IMG/VR virus record: IMGVR_UViG_3300030107_006047
Coordinates: 1 to 64,000 of that record
From: a virus
Length of the DNA stretch: 64,000 nucleotides
Direction: 5' to 3' (one strand)
The translations under genes were made by a program, and so were the position numbers. The notes below the pieces were generated by a model that did no database searches, was not told where the DNA came from, and saw nothing but the letters and a program-made list of their open reading frames with translations. Positions 7,737 through 51,260 of this stretch are shown piece after piece (positions within the stretch are counted from its first letter, which is position 1; each line of letters opens with the position of its first letter).

Positions 7737-8304
7737 TTACAAATGCACCGAATGCGAAGAAGTTACTGAAGTTCTTGCATTTATGAGCAGTAAGCCCGAT
7801 ACCGTTGACTGCCCTTCTTGCTCGTCGGTTGCTAAGTTTTGCTTCATTGCTCCGGTGAAGAAGAAAAAAGAAAAGAAGACCATGGAGTTTAAGCGCCCCC
7901 GCCTGACCACTCACAAGTTCTTTTGCTCTGAGTGCAATACCCAGTGGACTGAAGTTGTAGAGCGGGATGTGGATCCTGTTCCAGAGGGTGGCCGAGACTG
8001 CCCTAAGTGCAAAGCTCACGCGACATGGATGCCGTCTTGCAAAATCGATAGGTTTAGCGAGACCTTCCCTTATTATGACCGTGGTCTCGGGGTGATGTTA
8101 CAGAACAAGCAACACCGCAGAGACATCTGTAAGGAGAGGGGCCTTACTCCAGTTGAGGGTGACTGGGATGTTGAAAGCGAATATTCAAAGTGGGACAGTC
8201 GCGTTGATCAAGAAACCAAAGAGTATGAACAATACTGCGAAAGGCTTGACAAAGACCCCGCATTCAAAGATTTTAGAAAACAACAAGACTTAGGTCTTAT
8301 CTAA
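7723..8304 (+). CDS. FmdB-family zinc-ribbon protein with two CxxC...CxxC ribbons
   Basis: MPLYDYKCTEC...CPSC and FFCSEC...CPKC. GGAGG SD supports the ATG at 7723. Confidence 0.8.
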   Translation: MPLYDYKCTECEEVTEVLAFMSSKPDTVDCPSCSSVAKFCFIAPVKKKKEKKTMEFKRPRLTTHKFFCSECNTQWTEVVERDVDPVPEGGRDCPKCKAHATWMPSCKIDRFSETFPYYDRGLGVMLQNKQHRRDICKERGLTPVEGDWDVESEYSKWDSRVDQETKEYEQYCERLDKDPAFKDFRKQQDLGLI

Positions 8305-11745: not shown

Positions 11746-13059
11746 ATGAACTTTAAAGAAATCAGGGAAGAAATAAACTCTGCCCTTGACTACAACCCAG
11801 ACCTTTCGGCCTATAAAGACCAAGCCTCTCGGGTAATTAATCGAAATTACCTGCAGATTAGCAGTCAGCATCAGTGGCTTTTCTTGCAAGATCTTAGGTC
11901 GTTTCAGCTAAAAGCTACGATTAGCGGAACAACAACGAGCATCAACGTCACCATTGATGCCAGTAATCTTAGGCTTGTGACGGCTGCTTCAGGCACCCCT
12001 TTCTCTGAGGAAATGGAAGGCCAGACCTTTGTTGCCCCTGATGGGACAGAGGTCGATATCGTAAGGGTAGCAACCGCAACAACTCTTTACCTTGCGGCTG
12101 AAGTCTCGGCGGCTGCTGCAAGCGCGAGTTGGACTATTCGCTTTGATAGATATGCTCTCCCAAGTGACTGTGTCGAGGTTCTTGGGGTGATGTCTCGAGA
12201 AGATGAGCGTGGTCGCCTTAGCTTTGTAAATATGCGAAAAGAAGAGGAGCAGTTTCTCGATAAGGACGTGACGGGCGATCCCCTTGTAATGATCGAGGAG
12301 GAATCGAATGAGTTTCAACGACCCCCAGATCAAAAGCCCTCGCTTACCGTAGACAATAGCGGAAGCACAAATGCTCTTGCCGGAGATGTAACCTATCAAT
12401 ATTGCTATACGATTGTGTCTCAGGGCCTTGAGAGTGCGCCATCGTTGGTTTCTGAGGCAACGACACAAAGCAGTACATCGTACCAAACCATCACTGTTAG
12501 CAACCTGGAGGACTTGAGGTGGTCATCTGACGGATCAACCTACAGGGAGTCTGGAAAGAGGAAATACCTTTACAGGCGAGACAAGACAAACGGCACTCGG
12601 TGGGTGTTGGTTGCCAAGATTGACGCGACAACAACAAGCTACACCGATGAGACCGTCTTGCCGTCATCAACGTCTGGAACGAGCACATACGATTACGATC
12701 AGGTGGTTAACTTTTATGACTCAGGTCCTCGTCAATACGTCCGATTTTGGTGGACGGCATCTTCCGACAAGACATTTGAGATCCGATACATGCAGAGACC
12801 ACGAAGAATGTCTGCCGACTACGATGTCCCAGCGTGGCCTGTTCAATATCACCACCTCCTTGTGTACAAGTCTTTAGAGGACATTTGTCTTCAGAACGGA
12901 ATGGCTACTCACAGCCAGCTTTATTCAAGAAGGGCGGATGAGCTGCTCCTTAGAATGAAACAGAAGTATTTGAGCCGTTCAGATAGAATGTTTGTGCGAA
13001 GAGGGTTCGACAAGGATCTTCTTGAGGCTGAGCGCTGGGGTATTCCTACAAAGGTTTAG
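11746..13059 (+). CDS. Head-tail adaptor (tail tubular A-like) with inserted beta domains
   Basis: MNFKEIREEI N-terminus, YALPSDC, and VPAWPVQYHHLLVYKSL C-terminal motif. Position fits. Confidence 0.7.
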   Translation: MNFKEIREEINSALDYNPDLSAYKDQASRVINRNYLQISSQHQWLFLQDLRSFQLKATISGTTTSINVTIDASNLRLVTAASGTPFSEEMEGQTFVAPDGTEVDIVRVATATTLYLAAEVSAAAASASWTIRFDRYALPSDCVEVLGVMSREDERGRLSFVNMRKEEEQFLDKDVTGDPLVMIEEESNEFQRPPDQKPSLTVDNSGSTNALAGDVTYQYCYTIVSQGLESAPSLVSEATTQSSTSYQTITVSNLEDLRWSSDGSTYRESGKRKYLYRRDKTNGTRWVLVAKIDATTTSYTDETVLPSSTSGTSTYDYDQVVNFYDSGPRQYVRFWWTASSDKTFEIRYMQRPRRMSADYDVPAWPVQYHHLLVYKSLEDICLQNGMATHSQLYSRRADELLLRMKQKYLSRSDRMFVRRGFDKDLLEAERWGIPTKV

Positions 13060-13061
13060 TA

Positions 13062-26106: not shown

Positions 26107-29100
26107 GTGTCAAACGGGAACGACGACGACATTCTTCTGGAGGGAATGACTGGGTTTGCTGAAGAGCCTGTTCTTGGCGGCGGAGTTTACCGTGGAGAGC
26201 TTGATCTTACGGGTGAATTAGACACCTCTCCTGCAGAAATGTTCGAGGATGTTGATGTTGTCGGGTCTATTAGGGACTTTGAAGAAACTTACAGCAAAGC
26301 TGCAACACCCGTTACCTATATCGAACAAGAGCAAATAAACGATCAGCTTAGAGAAGCTATTGAAATGCAGCTAAGGTCTACCCGGCCTGGGCACGAAGAT
26401 GACTGGTACAAAGAGCGGGTCGAGAAAAGAATTCATGACCTAAGCTTCGTCCATGCCAACTATGCTCCTGATCCTCCTGAGCTTCCAAGTGTTAGCTTTC
26501 TAAAGAACCTATACCAACAATACCCAGAGCAACTCAGGTCAACGTATCGACCAGATAGCTCGGTTGGTCGTGTTGTTTCCGCTATCAGCACCGACAAAAC
26601 AGATGAACAAATCCAAGAACTGATTGACAAAACAACAGTCAGTGAATGGCCGAGCGAGTTTACCTGGGGTGGCGGTTTCGTCAACGCTATGCAGAGGGGC
26701 CTTAGCCGAAGGGTTATCGAGGTCGAGGCTGGCGCTGATAAGCCTGGAAGCGAGATGCGGTGGGAGCACGGTCGGAAAGTATCCAGAGAATACGAAGCCA
26801 TAATGGATGACCAGGGCTGGGGGGCCGGTGTAGCCAGGATGTGGGCAAACGGTCCCAGCATGGATGAAAACGACGCCTATCGTGCGGGCCTGTTTCTCGA
26901 TGAAGACGAGGCAACCGCACGAGAACTGGTTGTTTCGACGGGTCTTGGTATGACTTTTGGCGCTATGGTTAGGAGCAAGCTTGGGTACTTGCTTCCTAGG
27001 GCTGGCGTTTGGGGTAGACGCACTTTTGGCTTGAGGGGTGCCGTAAAAGGGGCGACAGCAGGATCTTCGGGCGGCCCTATCGGAATGACTATTGGCGCTG
27101 TTATTGGCGGTTTTGTTGGATACGGCGCTGGAAAGGTCTGGGGAAAAGTGGACGCTGAAGAGTTCTTCAAGCCCGTTCCTGCTTTCCCTCAAGACGAAGA
27201 TGATGACGGGTGGTTCTTTGCCCTTCCAAAAGGCCTGGTAGATCTGTCTACAAGAACTCTTGTATTGACCGGCTTGGCGGACTCCGCTGTTGTTCCGATT
27301 ATGGCCTCCAGCAATGAAGAGGCAGATCGCATGAGAGACATTATCGCGATGTCTCGGCCAAGCGAAGCATGGGAGTCTCTTGTTCATGAATATCGAACAG
27401 CCCGCGACTCTGGAAGGACAAGCGAGGAGCTAAGAGAAGAACTTAGGCCCCTCATGGGCGGCATGGTTAGAAACGTTGCGTGGGCCGATCTTCCCGACGC
27501 CGCACGCCATGCTGATAACCTCGACTTAGAAACCGCGATTGAATATGCGACAGCCAACAAAGACGTTGGAGATATCAACGCTCCTAAGTTTACCTTTCAA
27601 TACTTTGTTGGTTTAGCTAATGAAGGAAATACCGGCAAAAAGGGTCTTCAAAGGGTCCTCCACAGCCTTCCTATTGGTCAGATTCTAAACCATGTCCCGC
27701 AGATTATTGTTGGTGACGAAAGCCGTCCTGGTTCGATTCCTTCCGTTGATACCTTCATTGACGGCGTCATGGTTGCGGCAAGAGACACTGAAGAAGCTTA
27801 CGCGCTGACCGGAACGGACACAACTCGGGATCTTGCTACCGGCTTCGCCGAGTTGATGCTTGAAAGAAGAGAAGTGGGCGGCACGACTCGCTATGTGGAG
27901 AATACTCCTGGTAAGCTCTTTCGAGTTCTGTCTTCAGTCCCCGAGCTGTACATGGAGATGCGGCTTCCGTTCGACATCCCGCTAACGCCCGCGTCTCGTG
28001 ACGCAAGGTACAACCTTGGTATTCGAGATCCTGATGTCGGATATTGGGCCAATTTCTTTTCTAATGTTGAGACGGGGGAGATGGGGCTTGCTCGCCATGT
28101 GACCGACGAGATGATTTCTCGTGGTGTTGACAGGCAGTCTTGGCAATACAGGGGAATCGCTACCGGCGGTGTAATGGCCGACTGGCTGGTGTACTGGGAG
28201 CGCCCAATTATTTCTGGAATCGGGATGCCCACAAGGGCTGGATTGCGAGGGTATGGCGCTTGGAAGCAATACAAAGACAATCCTCTACGATTGCAAGCAG
28301 TTACCGCCGCCCTTTCTCCGAGGCTTTACGCCTTTAGGAACAAAGTAGATGTTCAAAACACTCAAGCCTGGGCTAATGTTTCCCGGTTTCTTGGTGAGGA
28401 CACGGGGCTCGAGGGCTTGCAGACCCTCAAGGGAGGGAAGGCTTCAGACGGCTCTGACGTTGTTCTTGGAGTTAGGGAATCCGGCATTGTAGACAGAATG
28501 ATTGAGGCGATGGAGCAGGGAAAAAGCTTCGAAGACGCAGAGGCTTCTCTCCCCACCTACAGAGACCATGATTGGTATACAGTCCAAAGCCACTTGTTAT
28601 CTGAAGGAGTGAAGAACGGAGTCATAAAGGGCGACGATGTCTGGGCTGTGGTTCCAAAGCCGATGAGAAGCCAAGTGATTCAGGTCATGGCTGCGGCTGG
28701 TATTGAGCCGTCTTCTGCCATTAGGGCTCTGAACCAGTACATCCTTAAGGCGAGAAAGATCAACCTTCATGCCATGGAGAAGCTCCTGACCGAAGGCACT
28801 CCAGAGATGATTGCTTTTCGGGGTAGCGATCAGTACAAGAACTTAAGGAATGTCTTGCTTGAAGCCGTTGGTAGCGCTGGCGGAGCAACAGACCATGTAA
28901 ATATCTCTATGCCAAAGCTCGAGCTTCAGGCTTGGATTGCGGCCCTTGATCCTCAAAGACCCAACATTAAGTCGATGGAGGACTATTTCGATGCTTTGCG
29001 TATTGAATTAGAAGGAGCCGGAGGCCCTCCCCCGACTAAAGGTCCCAAAGATCCACCAGTGGGCGGGCCCGAAGATCCACCAGTGGGCGGGCCAGGAAAA

Positions 29101-32100
29101 GACACATTCGACGATGTTGGCCCAACAGATTCTCCTCGAGATCTTTTGCCTGCTCCGAAATCTTTTGAAGATCAGTGGGAGTTTATTCAGGTTCTCGAAT
29201 CTCCCAATGGCGGGTATTGGAAAAGGAAGGGAGAGGGTCCTGCGGTCACCAGCCCTCTTTCTCACCCAGAGCTTGCTGGAGGAAAGGGCGCAGACGCGAT
29301 TACTGTGTTCAGGCATTCTCCAGTTCTTGGGGAAACACCTGCGGCTGCCGGTGACTGGGTGGGCGCAAGGATTAAGCCCACGGGAGTATGGGGAGATCAC
29401 TTTAATCCGATAATGCACGCATCCAGGGGTGCGGACCACCCGGCGCTAACCCTTTACAGCGCTATTGATGGAAATACTTACAAGTTCACCATTGCCGCTA
29501 CCAGCAGGGCGTCGCAGTCAAAGATAGGTGACGTTCCTGAGATGTATAGGACTTTGGTGGCAGAGTCTTTGGCTGAGTTCAAGCAGCATTTGGATTCTAA
29601 TCCAGATGCTGAGTACGTCTTTATTCCACAAAAATCCAAGATGAAGATTGCTTATAAGCCATCGGGACAAATAGCTTTTCGCGACCAGGGTTACCCTGAA
29701 AAGACCTTCTCGTTCTACAAGAAGTGGGCAAGAGATCTTGGTCTTGAAGAAACGACAGCCTGGTATTACCCGGAAAAAGGGAGCTACCGCGAAACTAAAG
29801 CGTTTCGTATTCCGTCCAAAAAGCTTGAGAAAATGCAGGAGCAGGCTGCGCTTGCAGCAAAAGATCCAAGCGTAATTCCTCCGTCTGCTGTTCTTGAGCA
29901 TCCAAAGCATTGGTCGAAAAAGAAAGTAGACTTCATTGAGTCTTGGAGGAAGTGGGCAAAAGAGAGCGGAATGGACCCGCTGATTTCGAAAGTTTCCGAA
30001 ACATTCATGCAGATCCTTCCGAATCGGGCGTTTGAATATCACAACCTTTATTTTCACCCGACCAGTAGACACCTTTATGGCTCACAAGCATCTGCCAGAG
30101 GAAGCGGTATAGACAGCGGCATCCCTTACGCAGTGAAGCTGTACTTTACGTCGAAAGCAATCAAATACGACCCAGAAACTTCTCCTTTGGCAAAGATGAC
30201 GAAAGAGGAGATCGCTGAGGATGCACGAAAGTCCTTCCAGGCTTGGAAAGACGACAAGCTAGCAAAACGGAGGAAAGAAAAAGGTCTTGATCCGCCAGGA
30301 TCAGATGACTATCTTGCTGCCAATTCAGATCTTAGGGCGATTGAGATTAATGAAATCATAGAAGTGCTCGGCCCTCATGTTGCCGAAATAAGCCGAAGAA
30401 TGTCGGAAAGGAGAGAATCTGGCGCGAGAGTGCCGGTTGAAGATGATCCTCATTGGCAGATTGACACTGACCACGCAAAATACTGGGGCGTATCAAATGC
30501 TGGAGAATGGGTTGAGAACCAAGTTCTCCAAACCGGCGTCGCCGCCAAAACGACTGATGTTGGCTATAATCCTACACTTATAAGAAGGGCTGTAAGGCGA
30601 GCAAGCGACGCAATTGCGCAGAGCGAATACAGCCTAATCAAGGTAGCGCATACGTTTGTACACGAGATGACGCATGTCCTTCACTACTCAGTTCTTTCAG
30701 AGAAGGAACTGAAGGCCCTCAGGAGAGCATACGTTCGTGAACGAGATGCGGGGTTTCCAAATTGGAGAAGAGCTAGAGATTTTAAGAAGGATTTGAAAAC
30801 AGAAAGCGCTTTCGGTGAATGGCTTGCAGACACTGTTTCAGATTATTGGATTACCGGAAACGCAAGCAGGCACGGTTTGTTTACCAAGGAAGAGGCGGGG
30901 CTTCTTCAATCAGCCATCAGAAGAATGGCTCACTGGTTCAAACAACTATTTGGTTGGAGGAGCCAGACCATTCGGGGAACGGCACCTCTCGATACGTTCC
31001 CAGAGGAGATCATCGATCTTCTTGAAAGGCTTACAAAACAGGCGCTTGAAGGCGAAGAAGCTAAAGCGGGATGGGTTGATGAAACGGTAGAAATTAGACC
31101 AAAATCAGAGCTTCGTAGCTGGTACTCAGAAGACCTTGGGCCTGTTGCGTCTACGCGCCGTACAGGCCCTCCGCGCCGTGGAAACGAGATTCCTCGTAAG
31201 GATTGGGACGAAAACTGGCAAGACAAGCCCGCGATAGAATCTGCGCGGTGGTTGAGAGATCAAGTAGATAACGATCTTCAAAAAGCAGTATTAGACAAAG
31301 TCATAGAAAGCCTGGACGAAACAGGCACAGATCCAAGAAGCACGTCCGTAAAGACGTACTTGTCAGACCTCCCTGGATTATCTGGTCGGTATCATCCCGA
31401 CAGGGGTTGGGTTTTGCTCGACCCGGCTCGGTCATCTTGGCAAGAAGGTGGCATGGTTCAGGTGGCAATCCATGAATTAGTGCATGCGGCTACTGTGGGT
31501 AAGATTGAAATCTACCCGGACTCGATCCAGGTGAAGAGGCTGGACCGTCTCTTTGATGAGGCTAGGTCACAGGTTTTTACTCCTGCTCACAAGACACGTT
31601 CTTATGGGTGGAATGACCGGCTGGAGTTTATTGCGGAGGGTCTTTCAAATCCTAAGTTTCAGGATGAGCTTCGCTCTATCAAAATCAGCGATGAGCTTGC
31701 TTCAGAGCTTGGGATTGCAGATCCAAATCTCTGGGAGGGCTTGGTCGCTATTATTAGACAACTCTTGGGTCTAGGCGAAAACGACCAGTCAGCACTCTCA
31801 GGTCTTCTGAAGGTCACAGACGACATCGCCCGTATGGACATTGAGCCGAAGCGCTCTATGAGCTGGATGGATAGGTCTAAATACGAGCCTCCGCCACCCG
31901 CAAGGATGGAAGAGATTCTTGACACGATCTTAGACGAAAAGTCAGCACAACAGGCGGCCACTGCTAACGCCCCTCTTTGGGTAAGATCTATTCAAGAAAT
32001 GCCAGAAGAGAGGGCGCTTGACGCAGCCGAAAGCATTGCTGCGAACTACGCTCCTGTTGGCTCAAAAGAGTACGAAGGCATTGTTTCATACATTGTGACA

Positions 32101-35100
32101 GGGGGACGAGAGGGAAGGCTGAACAGAAAAATCTTGGCTGACTTTGAACCAGGAACCCCAGCATCGACTCCATCAACAGGGCCGACTCCAAGGTGGCGAG
32201 TGTTTTACGACACAAAGGTTGAGGGTAAAGACGGAACTACCAAGCTTGTTTCTTCTGCAGAGGTTTGGAATAGCGCTGACGCAGACGCGCTGTACCACAT
32301 AATGAAGAGCGGCAACATCTTTATGATCTTCAACAACGGCGGAAAGCTTCTGCGCCGATTCCTTGGCTCAAGAGACTACCGTCACTTGGTTAGAGAGCTT
32401 GATACCAAGGGGGGCCGAGACAGGCTGTCTCCAGATGGAGAGCGTGCAGCCAAGAAAGCATTCAAGGCATACATTGAAACAGGCAAGGCAAGCGGCCCAC
32501 TACTGCCGCTGTTTGATCAGTTGTACCTGAATCTCCAATCGTACTGGCTACGCCTGTCTAAAGACAGGTCCATTATCGCATCCCCTGAAATTCGAGGATG
32601 GTTTGATGAATGGCTTGCCCCAGACTTAAACCTAAGACCCCTTGCTGCTGAGATTACGGAAAGAGTTTTGACCAGATTCAAGCAGGTCAGAATTGCAGAG
32701 CCCGAAGATCTTCTGAAAAGATTGGAAGAGGGCATGGTCGGCCTTATGGGCCGAAAAGAAGAGTTTTGGCGCGTTCCTTTAGATACGCCAACTGTCAGAA
32801 ACGCTCTTGGCATTACTGACTACACCAAAGAAATGGATGTCGTTGACGCCTTTTCTAGGGCTGTTGGGTATGTGGCTGGTGAGCACGCCAGGATTATGTC
32901 TGGCGCTGAGAAGATGTTTGACCTGACCACCCGAAGCCACGTTCCTGCAAGCCGGGTAAAGGCTATCCACAGGGATGCGAATCGTCGCGTTTACCAAGTA
33001 CTTAATGGAAAGGTCGAGCACGGAACAGGAACAGGAAAGCTTGAAGGAAAGGTGGTCGCAGTTCTTTCTCCGGCACAAGCTGCATCCTTTAGGGTCTTTC
33101 TAAGATCTCTTAGTGCTGAGGCTCTTGGTAATATCCTTCCAATCCACCTTCTTGATGAATCTACTGACCTTACCCAAATATCGCTTGCTGACATGAACAC
33201 CATCATGGAAGTCGTCATTGATATTGAGGCGGGTGTGGCGGCTTCAAGAACGCACTACTCTGAGCGCATTTCGCCAACCCTCGCTGTTGCGATGTGGAAC
33301 GGCCTTAAGCAAATGTCGATCAACTCTGAGAAATACTCCGACCTAATGAAGTCAGTATCAGGTGGAATCCGGTCTCGATTCTCAGAGGCTTCCGATCTTG
33401 AAGATCTTGGTCCGTTCCAGCGACAAGTAGTAGAGATGACAACCAGAGAGTTGGGCGGCATTCCAAACGAAATGCTCAGGTGGCTTATTGAGTTCAGGAA
33501 AGGGAACAAAGACGCTACTCTTCATGAAATGTATCTGGCAATGAAGAACCAGCTAGAAGCTCCAGTCAAAGTAGAGCTTGTTGAAAAGATTATGGGAAGG
33601 CCAGCCACGCCAACAGACAAGGGCTCTAAAGGCTGGCTTGTAGAACTGGAAAGGTTCCACGGCTCACTGGAGGCCGACCCAGAAGGGCCCCCTCTTGCGG
33701 CTAGCAGGCGAAGGGATGCTCTTTTAGGCAGGGTAGACGATGAGGTTCAGTATGAAGATCCTACTGGCGGCGACATAGCAGGGTCATTCTTGGACCATGT
33801 ATTGGAGAACCTTTCAGATCTTCAAAGCATGATGGAGCAAGAAAAGCTGTCTCACCCGGTATACGGGCGGCTTGCAGAGGAGGATCATCATTCCCTGCAG
33901 ATCCTTCAAACCTACAAAGACAAGCTTAAGAAGTTTAGAGAGGGTCAGGAGAAAGGCGCTCCGAGAGAATCCTTGGATAAGATCTTGTCCGAAGAAGACT
34001 TTTCTGCAGTCGAGGACGCCCTTTATTACGTTCTCGACAGAATCAGAAGGCAGAAAGACAGGATCAGCCAGAGGGCTGTAAAGATTGGTCGCGCTCTTTC
34101 TGGTGACACTGACTTTGCCGATTCTATCTTCATGAAGAGTTCTGATGTTCAGGGCGAGTACTACGTCATGTTTTATGAAGGCAGATGGCTTGAGATGTTC
34201 GAAGCCTTTGGCACAAGAACAGGCATGGCCACTGGCTTCGAAAAGACCAGAGGTAAGGCCCCAGAAATAGACCCCGGCACCGCGCTTGTTCATATGATTG
34301 CAACGCTTAGGGCTGATGAGATTCTCGAGGGCCTTGCCGGAGTGATGGCCAAGTATGGTATCGCGAAAGATGTTCGAGAGCTTACTTCTAACTACTCTGC
34401 TGCAAGAGCCATTGAAGGGCAGTACAGCGGAATAAACAGGGATCTGTTTCACGGTCGGATTCAGTATTACATCGACGGAATACTGTCTTTCCAAATGAGC
34501 GCCAAGAGATACCCCTATGCTCCAATGTACACTGCAAAGGCGGGGGATACCCTTGAGAGTATTGCTAAATCTCATGGTGTGACAGCTAAGCAGCTCGCCA
34601 TGTGGAACGGCCTTGCTGTTACGGATCCCTTGGTGGCCGGGCAAGCAATAAGAACAGCCGACCATAAGATGCTTTTAGAGCAGCCTCGCGCTCCTTTTAC
34701 CGAAAAGCTTGCCCCTGTTCTTCCCACAAGAGAAACAAGAAGAGCGAAAGAACGTGGAGCGCCGGAAGACTTTTACGGCAATGTCCACGATCTTGAGGCT
34801 TATACACAAGCGGTAGACATTATCCATAACTGGGGCTTTAAAACAGCTAAGGAAGGGTTTGAGCTAAGAACGTTGCCGGATGGCAGTAGGGTCTTTGCCC
34901 CGAATTCGGTTTGGAAGCATCTTGATAATGCGCTCGATAGGGCCACGGGCGCTGGCACTGCGCGTGGGGTTGTTGCTCACAGGGTTGATCCTGCTCCGCT
35001 TGGTGTGACCGACTACAAATGGTCACCTGATGCCGAACGAAAGATGGCTCTTGGTAGGGCTGTTGATTCGCTTCAAAATATGTTCCCCTCCACCTTTGCC

Positions 35101-36582
35101 AGAATCAAGATGGGAGTGACGACAGGAATCGTTCTTCCGAACCCCGCTTATTTCACTGGTGTTTTCTTGGGAGCAGGGTTTCAGGCAATGCAAGGCGTTG
35201 GTCCTGTTGGGTTCTTTAAGATGATGAGAAACCCAAAACAGACTGGTGCGGTGATTGCAAGGCTCTGGAAAGAGGGATCTTTTGCGCCAGATGCTCCCCC
35301 AATTGTTTCAAAGAACGGTCAGATTTACACCGTTGAAATGCTTGCGCAGCTTGCAGAAGCTCACGGGTTGAAATCCAGCTTCATTCATGCTGAGACGATG
35401 AAGGCGATTGCGTCGGATATTCGTGAGTTCCATCCTGGCTTTTGGAACAAGATGAGAGTTGGTCGGTGGGCAAAGAACTGGCAGAAGACACTTATCGAAA
35501 GCGCCACCGCACTGGATAACTATTGGCGTGTTTCAGTCTTTATTCATGAAATAAGAATGGGTAAGTCCCCTGCTGCTGCTGCCGAAAAAGCCCGGCTTGT
35601 TGGTTACGACTACGCGGCTCTCACCAAGTGGGAGAAGAAGTTCGCCAGAAATACGATCATGTTCTACTCGTACATGCGCAAGAACATGGATCTGTTCTGG
35701 GACACGCTTCTAACAAACCCGGAACGGCTGATCGGTCAAATGCGGCTCTTGAGAGGGATCCATACGGTCTGGTTGGATGACGACCCTCAGATTGTATTGA
35801 AGGACTATCTTCACGGAAGGCTGCCTACTTATTTCAAAGAGACCACAATAAATACGCATAAGTACAGCCAATGGATGTTCATCTCACCTCCCCTCCCCAT
35901 GATGGACGCGCTCAACATTTATATCGACATATACGATCTGATTGCGTTTAGAGACGAAGAGGCGATGCGAGGGCTTGCCACAAGATCCGCTCCTTGGGTG
36001 CAAGCACCATTTGTTATGGCAACAGGAAAAGACATTTTCTGGGACAAAGAGCTAAACGAATACAACAAGATTCCGTCATGGTTGATGGAGATGGATCTTG
36101 CTTTGACGGGCGGCGGCCTCATGTATGGAGTATTCGGCGCACAAAGAAGGCCCCATAGCGATCTTAGCAGGGCAGACATTTCGGGAGAATCTGAACGCGG
36201 CTGGTATCACGCAAGGAACGGTAGGGCCTGGTGGATCTGGCGAAACCTTCTGCAGTTTCCTGGCGCTGGCCGATCTATGGACACCATTTCATATATGGAC
36301 CGAGCGAACCTTGGGGCTGTCGAGGCTTCCGTCCGTACCGCCCGTTGGGCCAGGAGGACTGGGGCGGAAAGCGGTTGGTGGTCTGGGGTGCCAGAAATGG
36401 GCGAAGGAGACACCATGGGGCCAAGAACCGGCCTTGCGTGGAAAGACGAGTTGGCTGGTCTGTTTGGGTTCAAGCCTATTCATGTTCCTCAAAGATCACA
36501 CCAAACGGCTGTTGATAGTATTAGAATGCACAAAAGGAAAAAGCAGGTTTTGGCCCGAGAACGTCTATCAGAAGAAGACTAA
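26107..36582 (+). CDS. Giant internal virion/ejection protein with two zincin-like HExxH domains and a LysM domain
   Basis: 3491 aa. HEMTH...EWLAD at ~30661, HELVH...EFIAE at ~31471, and LysM YTAKAGDTLESIAKSHGVTAKQLAMWNGL at ~34528-34653. Confidence 0.75.
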   Translation: MSNGNDDDILLEGMTGFAEEPVLGGGVYRGELDLTGELDTSPAEMFEDVDVVGSIRDFEETYSKAATPVTYIEQEQINDQLREAIEMQLRSTRPGHEDDWYKERVEKRIHDLSFVHANYAPDPPELPSVSFLKNLYQQYPEQLRSTYRPDSSVGRVVSAISTDKTDEQIQELIDKTTVSEWPSEFTWGGGFVNAMQRGLSRRVIEVEAGADKPGSEMRWEHGRKVSREYEAIMDDQGWGAGVARMWANGPSMDENDAYRAGLFLDEDEATARELVVSTGLGMTFGAMVRSKLGYLLPRAGVWGRRTFGLRGAVKGATAGSSGGPIGMTIGAVIGGFVGYGAGKVWGKVDAEEFFKPVPAFPQDEDDDGWFFALPKGLVDLSTRTLVLTGLADSAVVPIMASSNEEADRMRDIIAMSRPSEAWESLVHEYRTARDSGRTSEELREELRPLMGGMVRNVAWADLPDAARHADNLDLETAIEYATANKDVGDINAPKFTFQYFVGLANEGNTGKKGLQRVLHSLPIGQILNHVPQIIVGDESRPGSIPSVDTFIDGVMVAARDTEEAYALTGTDTTRDLATGFAELMLERREVGGTTRYVENTPGKLFRVLSSVPELYMEMRLPFDIPLTPASRDARYNLGIRDPDVGYWANFFSNVETGEMGLARHVTDEMISRGVDRQSWQYRGIATGGVMADWLVYWERPIISGIGMPTRAGLRGYGAWKQYKDNPLRLQAVTAALSPRLYAFRNKVDVQNTQAWANVSRFLGEDTGLEGLQTLKGGKASDGSDVVLGVRESGIVDRMIEAMEQGKSFEDAEASLPTYRDHDWYTVQSHLLSEGVKNGVIKGDDVWAVVPKPMRSQVIQVMAAAGIEPSSAIRALNQYILKARKINLHAMEKLLTEGTPEMIAFRGSDQYKNLRNVLLEAVGSAGGATDHVNISMPKLELQAWIAALDPQRPNIKSMEDYFDALRIELEGAGGPPPTKGPKDPPVGGPEDPPVGGPGKDTFDDVGPTDSPRDLLPAPKSFEDQWEFIQVLESPNGGYWKRKGEGPAVTSPLSHPELAGGKGADAITVFRHSPVLGETPAAAGDWVGARIKPTGVWGDHFNPIMHASRGADHPALTLYSAIDGNTYKFTIAATSRASQSKIGDVPEMYRTLVAESLAEFKQHLDSNPDAEYVFIPQKSKMKIAYKPSGQIAFRDQGYPEKTFSFYKKWARDLGLEETTAWYYPEKGSYRETKAFRIPSKKLEKMQEQAALAAKDPSVIPPSAVLEHPKHWSKKKVDFIESWRKWAKESGMDPLISKVSETFMQILPNRAFEYHNLYFHPTSRHLYGSQASARGSGIDSGIPYAVKLYFTSKAIKYDPETSPLAKMTKEEIAEDARKSFQAWKDDKLAKRRKEKGLDPPGSDDYLAANSDLRAIEINEIIEVLGPHVAEISRRMSERRESGARVPVEDDPHWQIDTDHAKYWGVSNAGEWVENQVLQTGVAAKTTDVGYNPTLIRRAVRRASDAIAQSEYSLIKVAHTFVHEMTHVLHYSVLSEKELKALRRAYVRERDAGFPNWRRARDFKKDLKTESAFGEWLADTVSDYWITGNASRHGLFTKEEAGLLQSAIRRMAHWFKQLFGWRSQTIRGTAPLDTFPEEIIDLLERLTKQALEGEEAKAGWVDETVEIRPKSELRSWYSEDLGPVASTRRTGPPRRGNEIPRKDWDENWQDKPAIESARWLRDQVDNDLQKAVLDKVIESLDETGTDPRSTSVKTYLSDLPGLSGRYHPDRGWVLLDPARSSWQEGGMVQVAIHELVHAATVGKIEIYPDSIQVKRLDRLFDEARSQVFTPAHKTRSYGWNDRLEFIAEGLSNPKFQDELRSIKISDELASELGIADPNLWEGLVAIIRQLLGLGENDQSALSGLLKVTDDIARMDIEPKRSMSWMDRSKYEPPPPARMEEILDTILDEKSAQQAATANAPLWVRSIQEMPEERALDAAESIAANYAPVGSKEYEGIVSYIVTGGREGRLNRKILADFEPGTPASTPSTGPTPRWRVFYDTKVEGKDGTTKLVSSAEVWNSADADALYHIMKSGNIFMIFNNGGKLLRRFLGSRDYRHLVRELDTKGGRDRLSPDGERAAKKAFKAYIETGKASGPLLPLFDQLYLNLQSYWLRLSKDRSIIASPEIRGWFDEWLAPDLNLRPLAAEITERVLTRFKQVRIAEPEDLLKRLEEGMVGLMGRKEEFWRVPLDTPTVRNALGITDYTKEMDVVDAFSRAVGYVAGEHARIMSGAEKMFDLTTRSHVPASRVKAIHRDANRRVYQVLNGKVEHGTGTGKLEGKVVAVLSPAQAASFRVFLRSLSAEALGNILPIHLLDESTDLTQISLADMNTIMEVVIDIEAGVAASRTHYSERISPTLAVAMWNGLKQMSINSEKYSDLMKSVSGGIRSRFSEASDLEDLGPFQRQVVEMTTRELGGIPNEMLRWLIEFRKGNKDATLHEMYLAMKNQLEAPVKVELVEKIMGRPATPTDKGSKGWLVELERFHGSLEADPEGPPLAASRRRDALLGRVDDEVQYEDPTGGDIAGSFLDHVLENLSDLQSMMEQEKLSHPVYGRLAEEDHHSLQILQTYKDKLKKFREGQEKGAPRESLDKILSEEDFSAVEDALYYVLDRIRRQKDRISQRAVKIGRALSGDTDFADSIFMKSSDVQGEYYVMFYEGRWLEMFEAFGTRTGMATGFEKTRGKAPEIDPGTALVHMIATLRADEILEGLAGVMAKYGIAKDVRELTSNYSAARAIEGQYSGINRDLFHGRIQYYIDGILSFQMSAKRYPYAPMYTAKAGDTLESIAKSHGVTAKQLAMWNGLAVTDPLVAGQAIRTADHKMLLEQPRAPFTEKLAPVLPTRETRRAKERGAPEDFYGNVHDLEAYTQAVDIIHNWGFKTAKEGFELRTLPDGSRVFAPNSVWKHLDNALDRATGAGTARGVVAHRVDPAPLGVTDYKWSPDAERKMALGRAVDSLQNMFPSTFARIKMGVTTGIVLPNPAYFTGVFLGAGFQAMQGVGPVGFFKMMRNPKQTGAVIARLWKEGSFAPDAPPIVSKNGQIYTVEMLAQLAEAHGLKSSFIHAETMKAIASDIREFHPGFWNKMRVGRWAKNWQKTLIESATALDNYWRVSVFIHEIRMGKSPAAAAEKARLVGYDYAALTKWEKKFARNTIMFYSYMRKNMDLFWDTLLTNPERLIGQMRLLRGIHTVWLDDDPQIVLKDYLHGRLPTYFKETTINTHKYSQWMFISPPLPMMDALNIYIDIYDLIAFRDEEAMRGLATRSAPWVQAPFVMATGKDIFWDKELNEYNKIPSWLMEMDLALTGGGLMYGVFGAQRRPHSDLSRADISGESERGWYHARNGRAWWIWRNLLQFPGAGRSMDTISYMDRANLGAVEASVRTARWARRTGAESGWWSGVPEMGEGDTMGPRTGLAWKDELAGLFGFKPIHVPQRSHQTAVDSIRMHKRKKQVLARERLSEED

Positions 36583-38459: not shown

Positions 38460-38813
38460 ATGGCTACAATCAGTAAGGAGCTTCTTAGCGGAAGCACCCA
38501 GGGCAAAGGAATCAAGGTTACGGGCACTAACACTGGTGCTGCTGTTACTGTTCACACGGCGGTGAGCGGTACAACCGACATTGATGAGGTTTGGCTGTGG
38601 TGCGCCAACCAGCATTCTGGTGCGGTTGAGCTAACTATTGAGTGGGGCGGGACAGCCGCTGACGATTTAATCGTTATCGATATCACTGAGGACGCCGGTC
38701 TTGTGCAGATCGCGCCGGGCATTCCCCTTCAGAACAGCCTCGTTATAAAGGCGTTTGCAGCCCAAGCGAACGTGATCAACATCTTTGGATTCGTAAACAG
38801 GATGGACATCTGA
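38460..38813 (+). CDS. Small virion protein (paralogue of 40729-41115)
   Basis: DEVWLWCAN...NVINIFGFVNR. Confidence 0.65.
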   Translation: MATISKELLSGSTQGKGIKVTGTNTGAAVTVHTAVSGTTDIDEVWLWCANQHSGAVELTIEWGGTAADDLIVIDITEDAGLVQIAPGIPLQNSLVIKAFAAQANVINIFGFVNRMDI

Positions 38814-40108: not shown

Positions 40109-40300
40109 ATGGAACAACGTGTACGAAAGCTCGAAACTGATGTAGCAGTCCTTGGTCAGCGCGTTGACACCACGGAGGCTGAGGTGTCGGCTATTCGAGA
40201 AGACATTCAAGGCATTAAGAAAGAGATCCACAAGGCACAGGGGCTGATCCTTGCGACGGTGGTGATCATGCAATGCATCGCGATCTTTATGGAAGGGTGA
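40109..40300 (+). CDS. XhlA/holin-like peptide
   Basis: N-terminal coiled coil (EQRVRKLE...) and C-terminal hydrophobic helix LILATVVIMQCIAIF. Confidence 0.55.
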   Translation: MEQRVRKLETDVAVLGQRVDTTEAEVSAIREDIQGIKKEIHKAQGLILATVVIMQCIAIFMEG

Positions 40301-40301
40301 T

Positions 40302-40463
40302 GTGGAGGCGGATGTAGTAGCGAGCTACCTGGACTTAGGCATGACTTGCGGCTTCATTGCGTACCTCATCAACACAAATCGACGACAGGGCAAAGCCCTC
40401 ACGATGATGACCCGAAAGTATGAAGAGCTTTTCGAGCGGGTGCTAAAGAAGGAACGTGAGTGA
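40302..40463 (+). CDS. BhlA-like holin-type peptide (53 aa, not in the ORF track)
   Basis: Hand translation MEADVVASYLDLGMTCGFIAYLINTNRRQGKALTMMTRKYEELFERVLKKERE: hydrophobic N-terminus and charged C-terminus. Fills the gap between neighbours. Confidence 0.55.
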   Translation: MEADVVASYLDLGMTCGFIAYLINTNRRQGKALTMMTRKYEELFERVLKKERE

Positions 40464-40719
40464 AGGCTCGACCAATCCTTTGTCCAACATGCCCCCGTGG
40501 GGCTGGATATTAGTTTATCTTGCTGGCGGCTCTGCAATAGGTGTTGGCGGTCTTGAGCTTACTCACAGTTCTCATAGCCAAGAGAATGAATGCCCCGATC
40601 CAGGCTTTGCTCTTCACGAAGCGGAAAAAGAAATAGACGAACTAAGAAAGGCTCACGAGTCAATGGTCTCCAGTATTGGTATGATTTCTGGGTTATTGTC
40701 TCAATGCCAACAGCAATAG
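40456..40719 (+). CDS. Small membrane-anchored coiled-coil protein
   Basis: WGWILVYLAGGSAIGVGGL transmembrane segment followed by heptads. AAGGA SD. Confidence 0.55.
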   Translation: MSEGSTNPLSNMPPWGWILVYLAGGSAIGVGGLELTHSSHSQENECPDPGFALHEAEKEIDELRKAHESMVSSIGMISGLLSQCQQQ

Positions 40720-40728: not shown

Positions 40729-41115
40729 TTGGCAACCTATACAAAGTTAAATCTGTCTCCAGGTGGCACTGAGGGTGATGGAAACCCAATCCCCATCACA
40801 GATACCAGCGGCAACGGTTCTTTTATCCATGACACATCCAACGATGAAACCAAACAGGATGAGGTTTGGCTTTGGGCTGCCAACATTCACACTGCGGATG
40901 TACAGGTGACTCTTCATGTTGGTTATCTCAACTCTGGCTCTGCTGCTGTCACTGAGCAAATGATTGTCACTCTGCCATCTAAGTCAGGGTGGACGCTGAT
41001 CTTACAAGGCATTCCCCTCCGGTCTAGCGGCTCAACACCTCGTCGTGTCGCCGCGATTGCTGGCACCGCTAACGTGGTAAATATTGTAGGTTACGTCAAC
41101 AGGATCTCTTCGTAA
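40729..41115 (+). CDS. Small virion protein (paralogue of 38460-38813)
   Basis: DEVWLWAAN...NVVNIVGYVNR. AGGAGG SD, TTG start. Confidence 0.65.
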   Translation: MATYTKLNLSPGGTEGDGNPIPITDTSGNGSFIHDTSNDETKQDEVWLWAANIHTADVQVTLHVGYLNSGSAAVTEQMIVTLPSKSGWTLILQGIPLRSSGSTPRRVAAIAGTANVVNIVGYVNRISS

Positions 41116-41351
41116 TGAAGTGGCAGGATGACAGAGCCTACACTGACTGGCTAGTAGAACAAGAATACGCTGTGGTAAAGGGCGATACGGTTTCTCCGTA
41201 TTTGAGCAATGGCGTAGTTCTTTATATGCATGAAGCATGGGCCGCTGGTCATCAAGAGGCAGTTCAGCCTAAACCGCTAATATGCCAATGCGAGACCTGC
41301 AGGAATATTAGAAATAGGAAGGAGGACGATGGCGCACTTCTCACTGGATGA
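41115..41351 (+). CDS. Hypothetical protein with a C-terminal CxCxxC motif
   Basis: TAATG overlap with the previous gene. Confidence 0.5.
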   Translation: MKWQDDRAYTDWLVEQEYAVVKGDTVSPYLSNGVVLYMHEAWAAGHQEAVQPKPLICQCETCRNIRNRKEDDGALLTG

Positions 41352-41817
41352 GTTTGTTGGGGCAATTCAAGAGGCAGTAGTCAGGTCTACGGACATCGCT
41401 GAAACGCATGAGCTGAATCACATTCAGCAAGAAGAGTACTGGATTGACACTGGCGAAAAGGCTGATGACGGTACTCCTATTTATAAGCCACGCATGGTGA
41501 CAGTCCGGCTACCTATGTGGGAAGACGGCAAGCAAACCGAAAGGGACATACAGGTCCCCATGCAGACCCTTGTCACAGGGCAGTCATTGGCTATTGAGGC
41601 CCTCACTGTAGAAATGGATGTAGAGCTTCAAGGTATGGAGGACGGGGCCGACATCGGATGTACCCACAGAAAGCTGAAGATAAATCCATCTATCGGTGGA
41701 AATGGGTGGTTTGCTAAAAAGCGGAATACTGCTAAGATTTCCATAACTTTTAAAGGGCAGGAACCTCCAGAAGGTTATGCTCGAATTGATAATCAACTCA
41801 TCAAACTGCTTCCATAG
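41329..41817 (+). CDS. DUF2589-like protein (short type)
   Basis: SLDEFVGAIQEAV...IQVPMQTLV..QSLAIEALTVEM...KISITFKGQEPPEGYARI. AGGAGG SD. Confidence 0.75.
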   Translation: MAHFSLDEFVGAIQEAVVRSTDIAETHELNHIQQEEYWIDTGEKADDGTPIYKPRMVTVRLPMWEDGKQTERDIQVPMQTLVTGQSLAIEALTVEMDVELQGMEDGADIGCTHRKLKINPSIGGNGWFAKKRNTAKISITFKGQEPPEGYARIDNQLIKLLP

Positions 41818-41826
41818 GAGAAAACA

Positions 41827-42465
41827 ATGGCAGATGGCCTTGTAAAAATGTCCGATCAGTTTGGCGGTTTGCCGATGGACCAACTGATTGGTGGTCCTTT
41901 GAAAGCAGCCTGTGACTCTCAGGTTCAGCTTGCCAAAGCAACCGCTGATTTTATCCAAAACGTTGGCCTTGAGACTGATGCCAACGGGGTGATGAAGGCT
42001 CGCACGGTGGACTTTACCTATTCCAAGCCTGTCAACGACGGCAATGGTGGGTATACCGAGGTCACGAATCAGCTCGACGTGCCCATTCTTGCGATTCTCA
42101 ACACTCCTTCTCTCCAAGTGAAAGAGGTTGAAGTAGACTTCACGATGGAAGTGAAGTCGAGCACGTCATCCAAATCAAGCCGGGACTACGAAGCTACTCT
42201 TGATACAGAAATCAAAGCAGGCTGGGGTCCGGTTAGTGTTGATGTAAAGATTCACGGATCGGTTTCTGCTAAGAGCGAGAATGCCCGGTCTTCTGACAAC
42301 TCAGCGAAGTACAACGTCAAGGTCATCGCTCGCGACGACGGTATGCCAGAAGGTCTGAAGCGTTGTTTGGACATCGTTCAACAGGCGATTGCAGAAAAGC
42401 CTCAAGCTGGGCCTCCTGTGAACCAGCCCGTGAACCCACCAGCACCCTCTGGGAGGAATGGATAG
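41827..42465 (+). CDS. DUF2589-like protein (long type)
   Basis: FGGLPMDQLIGGPLKAACDSQ..LAKATADFI..VG...VPILAILNTPSLQV..V.VDF.MEV...SAKYNVKV.A....MPEGLKRCLDI. Confidence 0.85.
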   Translation: MADGLVKMSDQFGGLPMDQLIGGPLKAACDSQVQLAKATADFIQNVGLETDANGVMKARTVDFTYSKPVNDGNGGYTEVTNQLDVPILAILNTPSLQVKEVEVDFTMEVKSSTSSKSSRDYEATLDTEIKAGWGPVSVDVKIHGSVSAKSENARSSDNSAKYNVKVIARDDGMPEGLKRCLDIVQQAIAEKPQAGPPVNQPVNPPAPSGRNG

Positions 42466-42822
42466 ATGGCTTTTTATACTGGTAAAAATTCAATCACCCA
42501 AACCGACTTCATCCTTACAGACAACGATGTTGACGAGAGCGCTGTTGATGACGTGTTTGGTGGCTCGGCTACGGTCTACAGCCTGTACATTGAAAACGCA
42601 AGCTCGTTAGCTCACCTGAAGATCTACGATACCGCCGACCCCGTGGTTGGAACCACGGCACCGGACATCGTTCTTCAGGCCGTGGCTTCGGAGGAACTCA
42701 TGTGGCAGATTGTTGACGGCCTTGCCTTTACAAACTTTAGCTATGCCTGCGTTCAAGAAGACGGAACGGGCGGTACTACCGCGCCGGCAGGAACTGTAAA
42801 ACTCCACGCGGTTGTGAGGTAA
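42466..42822 (+). CDS. Small virion protein (paralogue of 42825-43190)
   Basis: LKIYD...VVGTTAPD...GTGGTTAP. Confidence 0.6.
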   Translation: MAFYTGKNSITQTDFILTDNDVDESAVDDVFGGSATVYSLYIENASSLAHLKIYDTADPVVGTTAPDIVLQAVASEELMWQIVDGLAFTNFSYACVQEDGTGGTTAPAGTVKLHAVVR

Positions 42823-42824
42823 AC

Positions 42825-43190
42825 ATGGCCCTTTCTTTAATTGGTGTAATTGCAGATGCGGGCAGCACTCATGCAGTACAAACAGACGCTACCGCTGAGG
42901 TTGATACTTTGAAGGCGGGCAGCGGTACGCTTTACAAAGTAGAAATCGACAACAGTGCGAACAACGTTGCTGTGTATGTGAAGCTTTGGCTGCTTACAAG
43001 CACGGTTACTGTTGGGACGACCGATCCTCACTACATTTTTAAATGCCCTGCGTCGGTTACCCGCGTGTATTCATGCCCTAAGGGTGCGGCGTTTGCTACC
43101 GGACTTAAGGCCGCGTGCGTCACAACGGGTGGAACGGCTGGGACATCCAACCCAACCAATGATGTGATCTACAGGATTCTGTACACTTGA
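42825..43190 (+). CDS. Small virion protein (paralogue of 42466-42822)
   Basis: VKLW...TVGTTDPH...GGTAGTSNP. Confidence 0.6.
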   Translation: MALSLIGVIADAGSTHAVQTDATAEVDTLKAGSGTLYKVEIDNSANNVAVYVKLWLLTSTVTVGTTDPHYIFKCPASVTRVYSCPKGAAFATGLKAACVTTGGTAGTSNPTNDVIYRILYT

Positions 43191-43227: not shown

Positions 43228-43434
43228 ATGAAGACCTATAAGAGCGAGTCGTACAGGATAAGGTCTTTTGAAACCAAGAAGATCAACAAGAAATCCGTGA
43301 CGATTGTTCGGACAAAAGTTAGCGGCACGACACGGCCTCCTGGTCAGGAGCCTACGAAAGGTTCGAGTCGCACGGAAAGATTCGCCTTGTTGCCTGGTCA
43401 GGAGGCCAACCATGCTGTTGAAGAAGGGAAGTAG
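43228..43434 (+). CDS. Small basic hypothetical protein
   Basis: Fills the gap and overlaps the endolysin start. No recognisable motif. Confidence 0.35.
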   Translation: MKTYKSESYRIRSFETKKINKKSVTIVRTKVSGTTRPPGQEPTKGSSRTERFALLPGQEANHAVEEGK

Positions 43435-44218
43435 GGGGCAAGAGGTAAAAGACGTACAGGCCCTGCTAAACGATAAAGGTTACGGACAAATCGGTGTCGA
43501 TGGAATCTTTGGACGAGGCACGGAGAAGGCCGTTAAACGCTTCCAGAAAGCGTCAGGTCTGTCTGCCGATGGAATCGTAGGGCCTAACACCCTCAAGGCT
43601 TTACAAGCCGCTGAAGAGCCAAAGCAGCCTGAAGTGTCTGATGAGCCACCACCTATCATTGGTGTGTTGAAAGAAAAGGGCTACGAGGTCTACACCGATG
43701 GCCAGATCAACACGATTGGTGTGCGCTCAAACAACCCGATCTCCAATAGCTTCGATGATGAGATGCACTTGGTGTGGGTGAAGAACGGATTGTGGCAGCA
43801 CAAGAAGTACAGAATTACCACGGACCCAGGCACTTATTGCTTAGAACATCCTGAGGTCTACGGTCGTGCCGCTGGCACGGCCATCATGGTGCCTGGTTCC
43901 TACCGCGCCTACAAGTGGGATATGCACCGTGGAAAGTATGAAACTCTGTGCCAGAGGGCATCGCCCATCCGCGTCTGGCGTGATGGAAACCGCGATAATA
44001 TACTTGATTTCGGACACGAAGATGACCTCGGAACCGAGGGGTGGTACGGCGTGAATTTGCATCACGCAGGGGCTAACTCTACGCGAGTAGACAAGTGGTC
44101 GGCGGGCTGCCAGGTGTTTGCCCGAATCGCAGACTGGGAGGAAGCGGTTAAGATCTGGAAGGCATCGGAGGCTGAGGTCTTTACTTATACCCTCATCACC
44201 GAAGATGACCTGTCTTAG
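43412..44218 (+). CDS. Endolysin: peptidoglycan-binding domain plus a His/Cys (YkuD-like) catalytic domain
   Basis: LKKGSRGQEVKDVQALL...DGIFGRGTEKAVKRFQ...DGIVGPNT, then GVNLHHAG...WSAGCQV. GGAGG SD before ATG 43412. Confidence 0.85.
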   Translation: MLLKKGSRGQEVKDVQALLNDKGYGQIGVDGIFGRGTEKAVKRFQKASGLSADGIVGPNTLKALQAAEEPKQPEVSDEPPPIIGVLKEKGYEVYTDGQINTIGVRSNNPISNSFDDEMHLVWVKNGLWQHKKYRITTDPGTYCLEHPEVYGRAAGTAIMVPGSYRAYKWDMHRGKYETLCQRASPIRVWRDGNRDNILDFGHEDDLGTEGWYGVNLHHAGANSTRVDKWSAGCQVFARIADWEEAVKIWKASEAEVFTYTLITEDDLS

Positions 44219-44226: not shown

Positions 44227-44448
44227 ATGGAAAAGCTCAAAGAACTTTGGAAAAAGCTCAACCCTAAAGTGGCCCTGATTGGAGGAGTCGTGGTTATCTC
44301 GACCTCTCTTGGCACTTGTCATCTCATGGATTCAGAGGATAAACCAGAGGCCCCTGCCGCTGAAGAAGCTCCCGCTGAAGTTCCTGAAAAAGAAAATGAA
44401 GTTCCTCCTGCTGAAGAACAGGAAGGGGACGCTGCTCAACCAGCGTAA
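44227..44448 (+). CDS. Small membrane protein after the endolysin (possible lysis accessory)
   Basis: Basic N-terminus, hydrophobic stretch ending LGTC, acidic tail. AGGAG SD. Confidence 0.55.
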   Translation: MEKLKELWKKLNPKVALIGGVVVISTSLGTCHLMDSEDKPEAPAAEEAPAEVPEKENEVPPAEEQEGDAAQPA

Positions 44449-44465
44449 AGAAGAGAAAGAAAAAG

Positions 44466-44502
44466 AAGCCCCGCTGGCAAACACCAGCGGGGCTTTATTT
44501 TT
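44466..44502. terminator. Bidirectional terminator between the convergent late and early arms
   Basis: A-rich run, then AAGCCCCGCTGG-caaaca-CCAGCGGGGCTT, then TATTTTT. Confidence 0.9.
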
Positions 44503-51184: not shown

Positions 51185-51260
51185 TGGCTGGGGCAGCGGG
51201 ACTCGAACCTGCAACTTCCTGATTAACAGTCAGGCGTTCTGCCAATTGAACTACACCCCA
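51185..51260 (-). tRNA. trnN: tRNA-Asn (GTT)
   Basis: Reverse complement TGGGGTGTAGTTCAATTGGCAGAACGCCTGACT-GTT-AATCAGGAAGTTGCAGGTTCGAGTCCCGCTGCCCCAGCCA: 76 nt, D-loop GG, TTCGA T-loop, encoded CCA. Confidence 0.95.

Follow-up and report, generated by a model that had tools for sequence, protein, structure and literature searches.

To our knowledge, the phage lysis systems characterised so far all use helical holins or pinholins to open the inner membrane. Holins and i-spanins are defined by their transmembrane (TM) helices, and o-spanins by a lipoprotein signal. Secreted beta-pore-forming toxins of the alpha-haemolysin and aerolysin types have stem hairpins. Small cytoplasmic proteins that form beta-barrel pores have also been described, namely Pepco (Trypco1/2) and the bacterial gasdermins (bioRxiv 10.1101/2025.11.14.688446). 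Here we describe two adjacent genes, A and B, that encode proteins of the family DUF2589 (Pfam PF11655) in the IMG/VR virus record IMGVR_UViG_3300030107_006047. The window that we analysed comprises bases 1-64000 of this 72,060-bp record, which is rated complete. The locus is a reduced member of a known, uncharacterised family: in the literature searched, which did not extend to supplements, DUF2589 is named only in passing, PF11655 not at all, and no paper treats the family. Bacteroides fragilis BF9343_2744 (DUF2589) is reported among genes changed under carbapenems, and Archaeoglobus fulgidus AF0414-AF0417 (DUF2589) are reported as induced on lactate. We tentatively favour the reading that A and B form a cytoplasmically made, membrane-active module of two paralogues that works with murein hydrolases.

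Gene A (41329-41817, + strand) begins with ATG and encodes a hairpin-less DUF2589 paralogue of 162 aa, and gene B (41827-42465, + strand), likewise beginning with ATG, encodes a hairpin-bearing paralogue of 212 aa with a variable Pro-rich C-terminal tail. The first-pass annotation, made from the sequence alone, had called both genes DUF2589-like, and the Pfam search confirms the assignment. Against a gathering cut-off of 23 bits and a profile of length 154, A scores 65.8 bits (E 7.5e-18; residues 6-159 on profile positions 2-153/154) and B scores 146.7 bits (E 9.3e-43; residues 16-186 on profile positions 1-153/154). A six-frame PF11655 search of the whole record returned two matches in total, A at 64.2 bits and B at 146.9 bits. 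The two proteins are homologous to each other: BLASTP similarity is not significant (E 0.34), whereas hhalign aligns them over 149 columns with a probability of 95.9% (E 5.6e-9), and the VP...SL and PEG..R motifs that the same annotation had seen in both proteins fall in register in this alignment. Homology that is detectable between profiles and not by BLASTP marks A and B as old paralogues. The spacer between the genes is 9 nt, and the ribosome-binding sites that had been noted are present as purine runs resembling a Shine-Dalgarno sequence upstream of both genes, that of B overlapping the TAG stop of A. Across an alignment of 57 A-type sequences 32 columns are invariant, as is the C-terminal tail PPEGYARID.QLIKLLP; homologues of B number 1786 representatives at E<=1e-3. 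Some of these homologues (P0002, P0006 and P0018 are examples) owe their extra length either to an internal Ala/Thr/Gly-rich insert of 100-200 residues between the N-terminal helix and the VP..LA strand or to a C-terminal extension, in proteins of ~360-420 aa with a coiled-coil-like C-terminus; neither addition has a Pfam family.

The setting of the pair recalls the holin-endolysin-spanin cassettes, in that it lies in a late operon, a signal-less endolysin and small membrane proteins are near, and the type of hydrolase is exchanged among relatives. The proteins themselves are unlike holins. Neither contains a TM-like segment, the maximum 19-residue Kyte-Doolittle mean (KD19) being 0.98 in A and 0.86 in B as against 2.13, 1.64 and 1.79 in neighbouring small open reading frames (ORFs), and neither has a PHROG holin match. 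They are also unlike spanins, having no N-terminal TM anchor and no PHROG match; the N-terminus is not hydrophobic in either protein. Searches of PHROGs, NCBIfam and PADLOC gave no family for A or B, barring one chance-level NCBIfam row.

The closest counterparts of the pair are found in bacteria. A scan of bacterial genomes, with one genome per species, gave 491 relatives among 563 pattern matches, and our bacterial counts refer to the 80 loci that were kept. These loci belong to Firmicutes, Myxococcota, Desulfobacterota, Beta- and Gammaproteobacteria, Bacteroidota and others. In 78 of them a further DUF2589 paralogue, lacking the hairpin, lies on the same strand as B (the other two loci start at B), in keeping with the earlier suggestion of a mainly bacterial family whose paralogues are linked. 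Bacterial cassettes thus resemble the phage locus in pairing a hairpin-less with a hairpin-bearing form on one strand, with a murein hydrolase nearby. They differ in their additional components, since the phage has A and B only. One of these components is a conserved ~90-aa protein directly after B (78/80 bacterial loci, 0/80 viral loci), for which we found no Pfam family and no PDB relative by sequence; another is a third hairpin-less paralogue, present in many bacterial cassettes. A search for the ~90-aa partner found nothing in the 72-kb phage record at E<=1, and two window neighbours considered as its equivalent were rejected on hhalign probabilities of 0.5% (a 118-aa ORF) and 0.07% (a 78-aa ORF).

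Hydrolases beside the bacterial cassettes were counted by local profile searches, one representative per family being named by Pfam. By these searches, a peptidoglycan hydrolase stands on the same strand in 51 of the 80 loci. GH19 enzymes account for 22 loci (22/22 on the same strand, 20 of them directly after B), GH108 plus PG_binding_3 enzymes for 15 (15/15 on the same strand, directly before A), CHAP enzymes for eight (8/8 on the same strand, ~0.9 kb downstream) and PG_binding_1 lysins for six (6/6 on the same strand, ~2 kb downstream). An additional locus, L157, has an N-acetylmuramidase, which brings the hydrolases to at least 52 of 80 loci and to five unrelated families; a neighbour in locus L112 resembles this enzyme by eye. 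Among 148 flanking proteins, further matches to wall-lytic families, with loci unassigned, were to SLT (2), a VgrG3-like C-terminal domain (2) and Muramidase (1). A KD19 scan of four of the bacterial hydrolase sequences revealed no TM-like segment.

Unrelated hydrolases swapped beside a constant cassette are the pattern of lysis cassettes. The strongest evidence for our reading is of this kind: the constant DUF2589 cassette is accompanied by five unrelated families of signal-less hydrolases, in phages and in bacteria with one or two membranes, which ties the family to envelope breaching. A lysis-related role, one of several that had been proposed from the sequence, is thereby supported. The occurrence of the family both in one-membrane Firmicutes and in two-membrane Proteobacteria points to the cytoplasmic membrane as the target. 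Moreover, 15 of 53 hydrolase-bearing cassettes have no same-strand TM-like ORF in the cassette or within 700 bp of it, so that the DUF2589 proteins are the only candidates there for letting the enzyme pass.

The commonest families among the 148 flanking proteins were response regulators or LuxR-type proteins (10-11), integrases (8) and DUF6765 (6), and no phage structural family was present among the 25 listed. A recurrent arrangement, seen in a Eubacterium metagenome-assembled genome (locus L084, 4216-9176) and in 6-7 similar Firmicutes loci, consists of DUF6765, A, B, the ~90-aa protein, DUF4231 (2 TM), CHAP and a tyrosine integrase. The flanking integrase and DUF6765 genes suggest a mobile island.

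Related phage loci show the same constancy of the pair. An IMG/VR pattern scan gave 157 relatives of B among 167 matches, and our viral counts refer to the best 80. They fall into two lineages, one with 83-97% and the other with ~60% identity to B. The linkage of A to B is obligatory: A lies upstream of B in 78 of the 80 loci, and the other two begin inside or just before B. In the 74 loci with both ORFs complete, the gap is <=60 bp in 57, and 0.3-1.0 kb is inserted between the genes in the remaining 17, which indicates that translational coupling is dispensable and that the junction is an insertion hot spot. In one such locus (L009, 4989-6000) the insert encodes three or four very lysine-rich proteins of 51-96 aa. 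A homologue of the window lysin occurs in 58 of the 80 loci, on the same strand as the pair in the close lineage; the linkage to late or lysis genes that had been anticipated for other phages was therefore recovered. A search of 50,697 deposited phage genomes gave a single record for B and no match for A. A further viral scan gave the same contigs, and a scan seeded with the long Bacteroidota-type form gave one locus. Since the repeat scans added almost nothing, the viral survey covers essentially one phage group with two lineages.

Within the record, the position of the pair in the late operon is clear. The gene set is that of a tailed phage, with a large terminase gene (3960-5528), a major head protein gene (9990-11033) and genes for podovirus-type internal virion proteins (11746-15458). 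Genes run rightward up to ~44.45 kb and leftward past there, and a strong bidirectional terminator-like hairpin at 44465-44496, with a 13-bp stem containing 9 G-C pairs, ends both the rightward late operon and the convergent leftward operon. The pair lies within the final 3 kb of the late operon, where the structural genes end, and a tail-fibre-like gene is near. Downstream of B, the operon has a terminator only after the lysin gene and a gene for a 73-aa protein.

The endolysin gene (43409-44218, + strand) is 0.9 kb downstream of the pair on the same strand and encodes 269 aa from the ATG at 43409. Its product combines an N-terminal peptidoglycan-binding domain (PG_binding_1, E 1.5e-20) with a C-terminal phrog_3000 domain (E 3.6e-26). 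It also matches several endolysin PHROGs, and its PDB matches by sequence are endolysins, through the N-terminal domain only. The enzyme has no export signal and a maximum KD19 of 0.5, and it is likely to be the functional partner of A and B. The first-pass annotation had placed the pair between holin-like peptides and the endolysin. Hydrophobic small ORFs do lie upstream and the endolysin does lie downstream, but four other genes, with function unassigned, are interleaved among the pair, the small membrane ORFs and the endolysin, so that the pair is near the lysis genes and not directly flanked by them.

What distinguishes B from A is a Ser/Thr/Gly/Ala-rich amphipathic beta-hairpin (residues ~111-158), encoded at 42157-42300 on the + strand. 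Its arms are residues 121-131 and 136-147, and its tip is the G-W-G-P motif at 132-135. Measured from the conserved MEVK strand to the R154 column, the insert is 28-53 residues long in 82 B-type sequences (median 41), and the equivalent stretch is 23-33 residues in 57 A-type sequences (median 28); the extra S/T-rich stretch remarked on earlier in the longer protein is therefore real. The insert lengths of B have modes at 39 (26 sequences) and 43 (27 sequences), and an odd length from 35 to 43 is found in 68 of the 82 sequences, as expected if both arms lengthen together. In the 82-sequence alignment, mean hydropathy alternates strictly over both arms, and the tip consensus is G in 48, W in 42, G in 51 and P in 37 sequences. 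Ser, Thr, Gly and Ala together make up 49% of the insert, compared with 34% of the whole of B. Amphipathic S/T/G-rich hairpins of such length are traits of the membrane-inserting stems of beta-pore formers. The likeness to such stems drawn in the first-pass annotation thus holds for length, alternation and composition. No known pore-former fold matched the model of B, in which the hairpin itself has low confidence.

The AlphaFold2 model of B, built from the 82-sequence alignment, has a mean pLDDT of 76.8 and a pTM of 0.58. Along the chain it runs from a long N-terminal helix (17-47) through a sheet of long strands (48-112) and a segment of low confidence (115-155) to a strand (157-169) and a C-terminal helix (175-188). 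The segment 115-155, with pLDDT <50, is its sole low-confidence part, and the rest is confident. The model of A, from a shallower alignment, is poor (pLDDT 60.5); its elements follow in the same order and the long insert is absent. A predicted A+B complex scored 0.05 against a mark of 0.32, which is uninformative either way. A sequence-profile search of the PDB with the B alignment gave no matches. In the BFVD fold search, B had matches at E 3.7e-7 and 5.4e-3, both unnamed and probably members of the DUF2589 family, and they were set aside as functional leads. Look-alikes of B outside PF11655 in the ESM Atlas were likewise set aside, the best (score 0.78) falling in unnamed clusters below lead level. 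With no solved fold that matches B, the mechanism proposed here rests on sequence features and gene context.

According to this proposal, A and B would be cytoplasmic products of late infection that have neither signal peptide nor TM helix, and at lysis they would act on a membrane, helping the signal-less murein hydrolase to break through the envelope. B might assemble alone or together with A, and its amphipathic hairpin, with the G-W-G-P tip, would insert into the lipid bilayer. A, which would have the core fold without the long hairpin, might co-assemble with B as a regulator, nucleator or cap. Given the conserved hairpin and the subset of cassettes without TM-like ORFs, the mechanism that needs the fewest assumptions is a membrane-active role for B. 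That B goes further and forms a beta-barrel pore in the cytoplasmic membrane seems possible, though we hold it to be doubtful. Just as doubtful is the wider proposal that the hairpin-bearing DUF2589 protein is the first of a new kind of beta-hairpin pore former, made in the cytoplasm and folded unlike any solved structure, which phages and bacteria would use alongside or instead of helical holins so that signal-less hydrolases reach the wall, and for which A would be a built-in regulator or cap.

Known pore formers offer partial analogies for such a mechanism. With the stems of secreted beta-pore toxins the hairpin of B shares its amphipathic character, ~11-12 residues per arm, richness in Ser, Thr and Gly and an aromatic tip, features that are not pore-specific; the remainder of B matches no such toxin, and B is not secreted. 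By analogy, the pair may work like Pepco or the bacterial gasdermins. In terms of our working model only, A and B would resemble these proteins in being small, soluble and without export signal, and in inserting beta-hairpins into the inner membrane from inside; the variable Pro-rich C-terminal tail of B is a further likeness to Pepco (bioRxiv 10.1101/2025.11.14.688446). Pepco and the gasdermins differ in having a defence role and in not standing beside endolysins, and no protease gene adjoins the pair in the window.

Several observations weigh against a membrane-active module. The phage encodes small membrane proteins of its own, possibly a holin and spanins, and so has no obvious need for another device. 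A Foldseek search of the PDB with the B model gave no matches at E<=1e-3, although the hairpin, at pLDDT <50, was hardly probed, and VIA-align against 48,161 chains reached a top Z of 3.9, on the helix only, with none >=5. This lack of a fold match for the predicted model is no proof of a new fold. Many beta strands show alternating hydropathy, and the core strand 96-110 of B is one of them. In a fusion search made with B only and not with A, all 46 of 46 longer homologues carry PF11655 alone and no hydrolase. No hydrolase was recognised by the seeds used in 28 of the 80 bacterial loci; in phages, 22 of the 80 loci have no lysin homologue, some of them being short, and the lysin of the ~60% lineage is on the opposite strand, 2-3 kb away. 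Finally, 38 of the 53 hydrolase-bearing cassettes have at least one nearby TM-like ORF, a figure to be read as a maximum, since crude ORF calling in GC-rich DNA yields false candidates. A 2-TM protein, for which one representative is DUF4231, is encoded between the ~90-aa gene and the CHAP gene in seven of the eight CHAP loci and could be a true holin.

Some of these points would also suit a different role, in which the DUF2589 proteins are non-pore accessories of the endolysin, serving as a cytoplasmic scaffold, chaperone or timer for the hydrolase while true holins carry out the membrane step. The linkage to hydrolases in phages and bacteria is what such an accessory would show as well, and separate TM proteins are available to it in the 38 cassettes, among the small ORFs of the window and, as DUF4231, in the Firmicutes cassettes; the missing pore-former match of the B model fits it too. 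It is, however, hard to see how a specific chaperone or binding partner could serve five unrelated hydrolase families; 15 of the 53 cassettes lack any TM candidate; and a soluble regulator would have no evident use for a conserved amphipathic hairpin that ends in an aromatic tip. We regard the accessory role as unlikely.

Less likely still is a conflict module, that is, phage cargo acquired for abortive infection, superinfection exclusion or toxicity, causing membrane damage or suicide lysis. It draws on the location of the bacterial cassettes in chromosomal islands, apart from phage structural genes, and on the precedent of small cytoplasmic beta-barrel pore formers that serve as death effectors in defence, such as Pepco (bioRxiv 10.1101/2025.11.14.688446). 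Yet a PADLOC-DB 2.0.0 search with A, B and four neighbours returned nothing at E<=0.1, and no sensor, NTPase or protease gene was seen adjoining the pair in the window. The pair is fixed in the late operon of both phage lineages (78/80), unlike a variable moron, and the earlier idea of a captured host conflict module gained no support, the pair being conserved in the phage group. A structural polymer, meaning a virion, ejection-channel or cytoskeleton-like assembly of the two paralogues unrelated to lysis, could be read from the two paralogous subunits, the extended helix and long strands of the model (at pTM 0.58), the place of the pair where the block of structural genes ends, close to a tail-fibre-like gene, and the podovirus-type internal virion proteins of the window, but it is very improbable, as the cassette occurs widely in bacterial chromosomes with no virion genes, neither protein has a PHROG family or more than the single B match among the deposited phage genomes, and no tube, sheath or capsid fold was matched.

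Returning to the membrane-active module and its surroundings, the genes near the pair supply several further candidates for lysis functions, all on the + strand. Furthest upstream is an XhlA-like 63-aa coiled-coil protein with a C-terminal hydrophobic anchor (40109-40300; KD19 2.13 at residues 43-61), a candidate lysis membrane protein whose PHROG matches are weak (phrog_3556, E 1.6e-6; phrog_1193 'hemolysin', E 2.7e-4). It is followed by a 53-aa ORF (40302-40463; KD19 1.64) and by an 87-aa ORF that overlaps it (40456-40719; KD19 1.47, which is borderline), each with an N-terminal hydrophobic segment and each a holin- or spanin-like candidate; a PHROG search gave no match for either. A 78-aa ORF with function unassigned (41115-41351) belongs to the same tight operon, its end overlapping the start of A by 23 nt. 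It has no Pfam match above cut-off, is not an FmdB-type zinc ribbon and is present in 13 of the 80 viral loci. Two paralogous proteins of 117 and 128 aa (38460-38813 and 40729-41115), both phrog_30535 (E 3.2e-29 and 1.7e-20), lie on either side of a 333-aa ORF and the genes for the small membrane proteins.

Between B and the lysin lie genes for two paralogous small proteins of 118 aa (42466-42822) and 121 aa (42825-43190), also on the + strand, the first beginning at the base immediately after the stop of B. Neither has a Pfam, PHROG, PADLOC or NCBIfam match. Relatives of both fall into a single cluster (100 ORFs, 48 viral loci) and accompany the lysin even where it is on the opposite strand. 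The last gene of the operon (44227-44448, + strand) encodes the 73-aa protein, with one hydrophobic segment (KD19 1.79 at residues 15-33) and an acidic Pro/Glu-rich tail, and has a homologue in 20 of the 80 viral loci.

An FmdB-type zinc-ribbon ORF occurs ~0.8 kb upstream of B in 30 of the 80 viral loci, in the ~60% lineage only. The sole zinc-ribbon match in the window is the N-terminus of ORF 7711-8304 (+ strand), a 197-aa product of the head-gene block (tblastn E 2.3e-4 and local hidden Markov model E 1.9e-7 to the FmdB-type ribbon); as it is 34 kb from the pair, we rejected the zinc-ribbon protein as a partner. Elsewhere in the window, an ORF of 3491 aa (26107-36582, + strand) stands after the tail or internal-virion genes of this podovirus-like phage; its sole Pfam match is LysM, at residues 2808-2849, and the remainder is without family. 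A tRNA-Asn (GTT) gene lies at 51185-51260 on the - strand, amid leftward early genes.

DUF2589 is a large family that spans many phyla and is conserved in an abundant marine phage group. The phage pair is its smallest natural version and has its own lysin 0.9 kb away, which makes it a convenient experimental entry point. If the hairpin-bearing DUF2589 proteins do form pores beside or instead of helical holins, A and B would be the smallest functional form of a widespread lysis or autolysis system that has gone unstudied. A soluble two-paralogue module that opened the inner membrane with a beta-hairpin would represent a new lysis principle, the phage and bacterial counterpart of gasdermin-like killing. 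Should the DUF2589 proteins turn out to be regulators of hydrolases only, they would still account for a recurring part of bacterial autolysis islands that lacks annotation.

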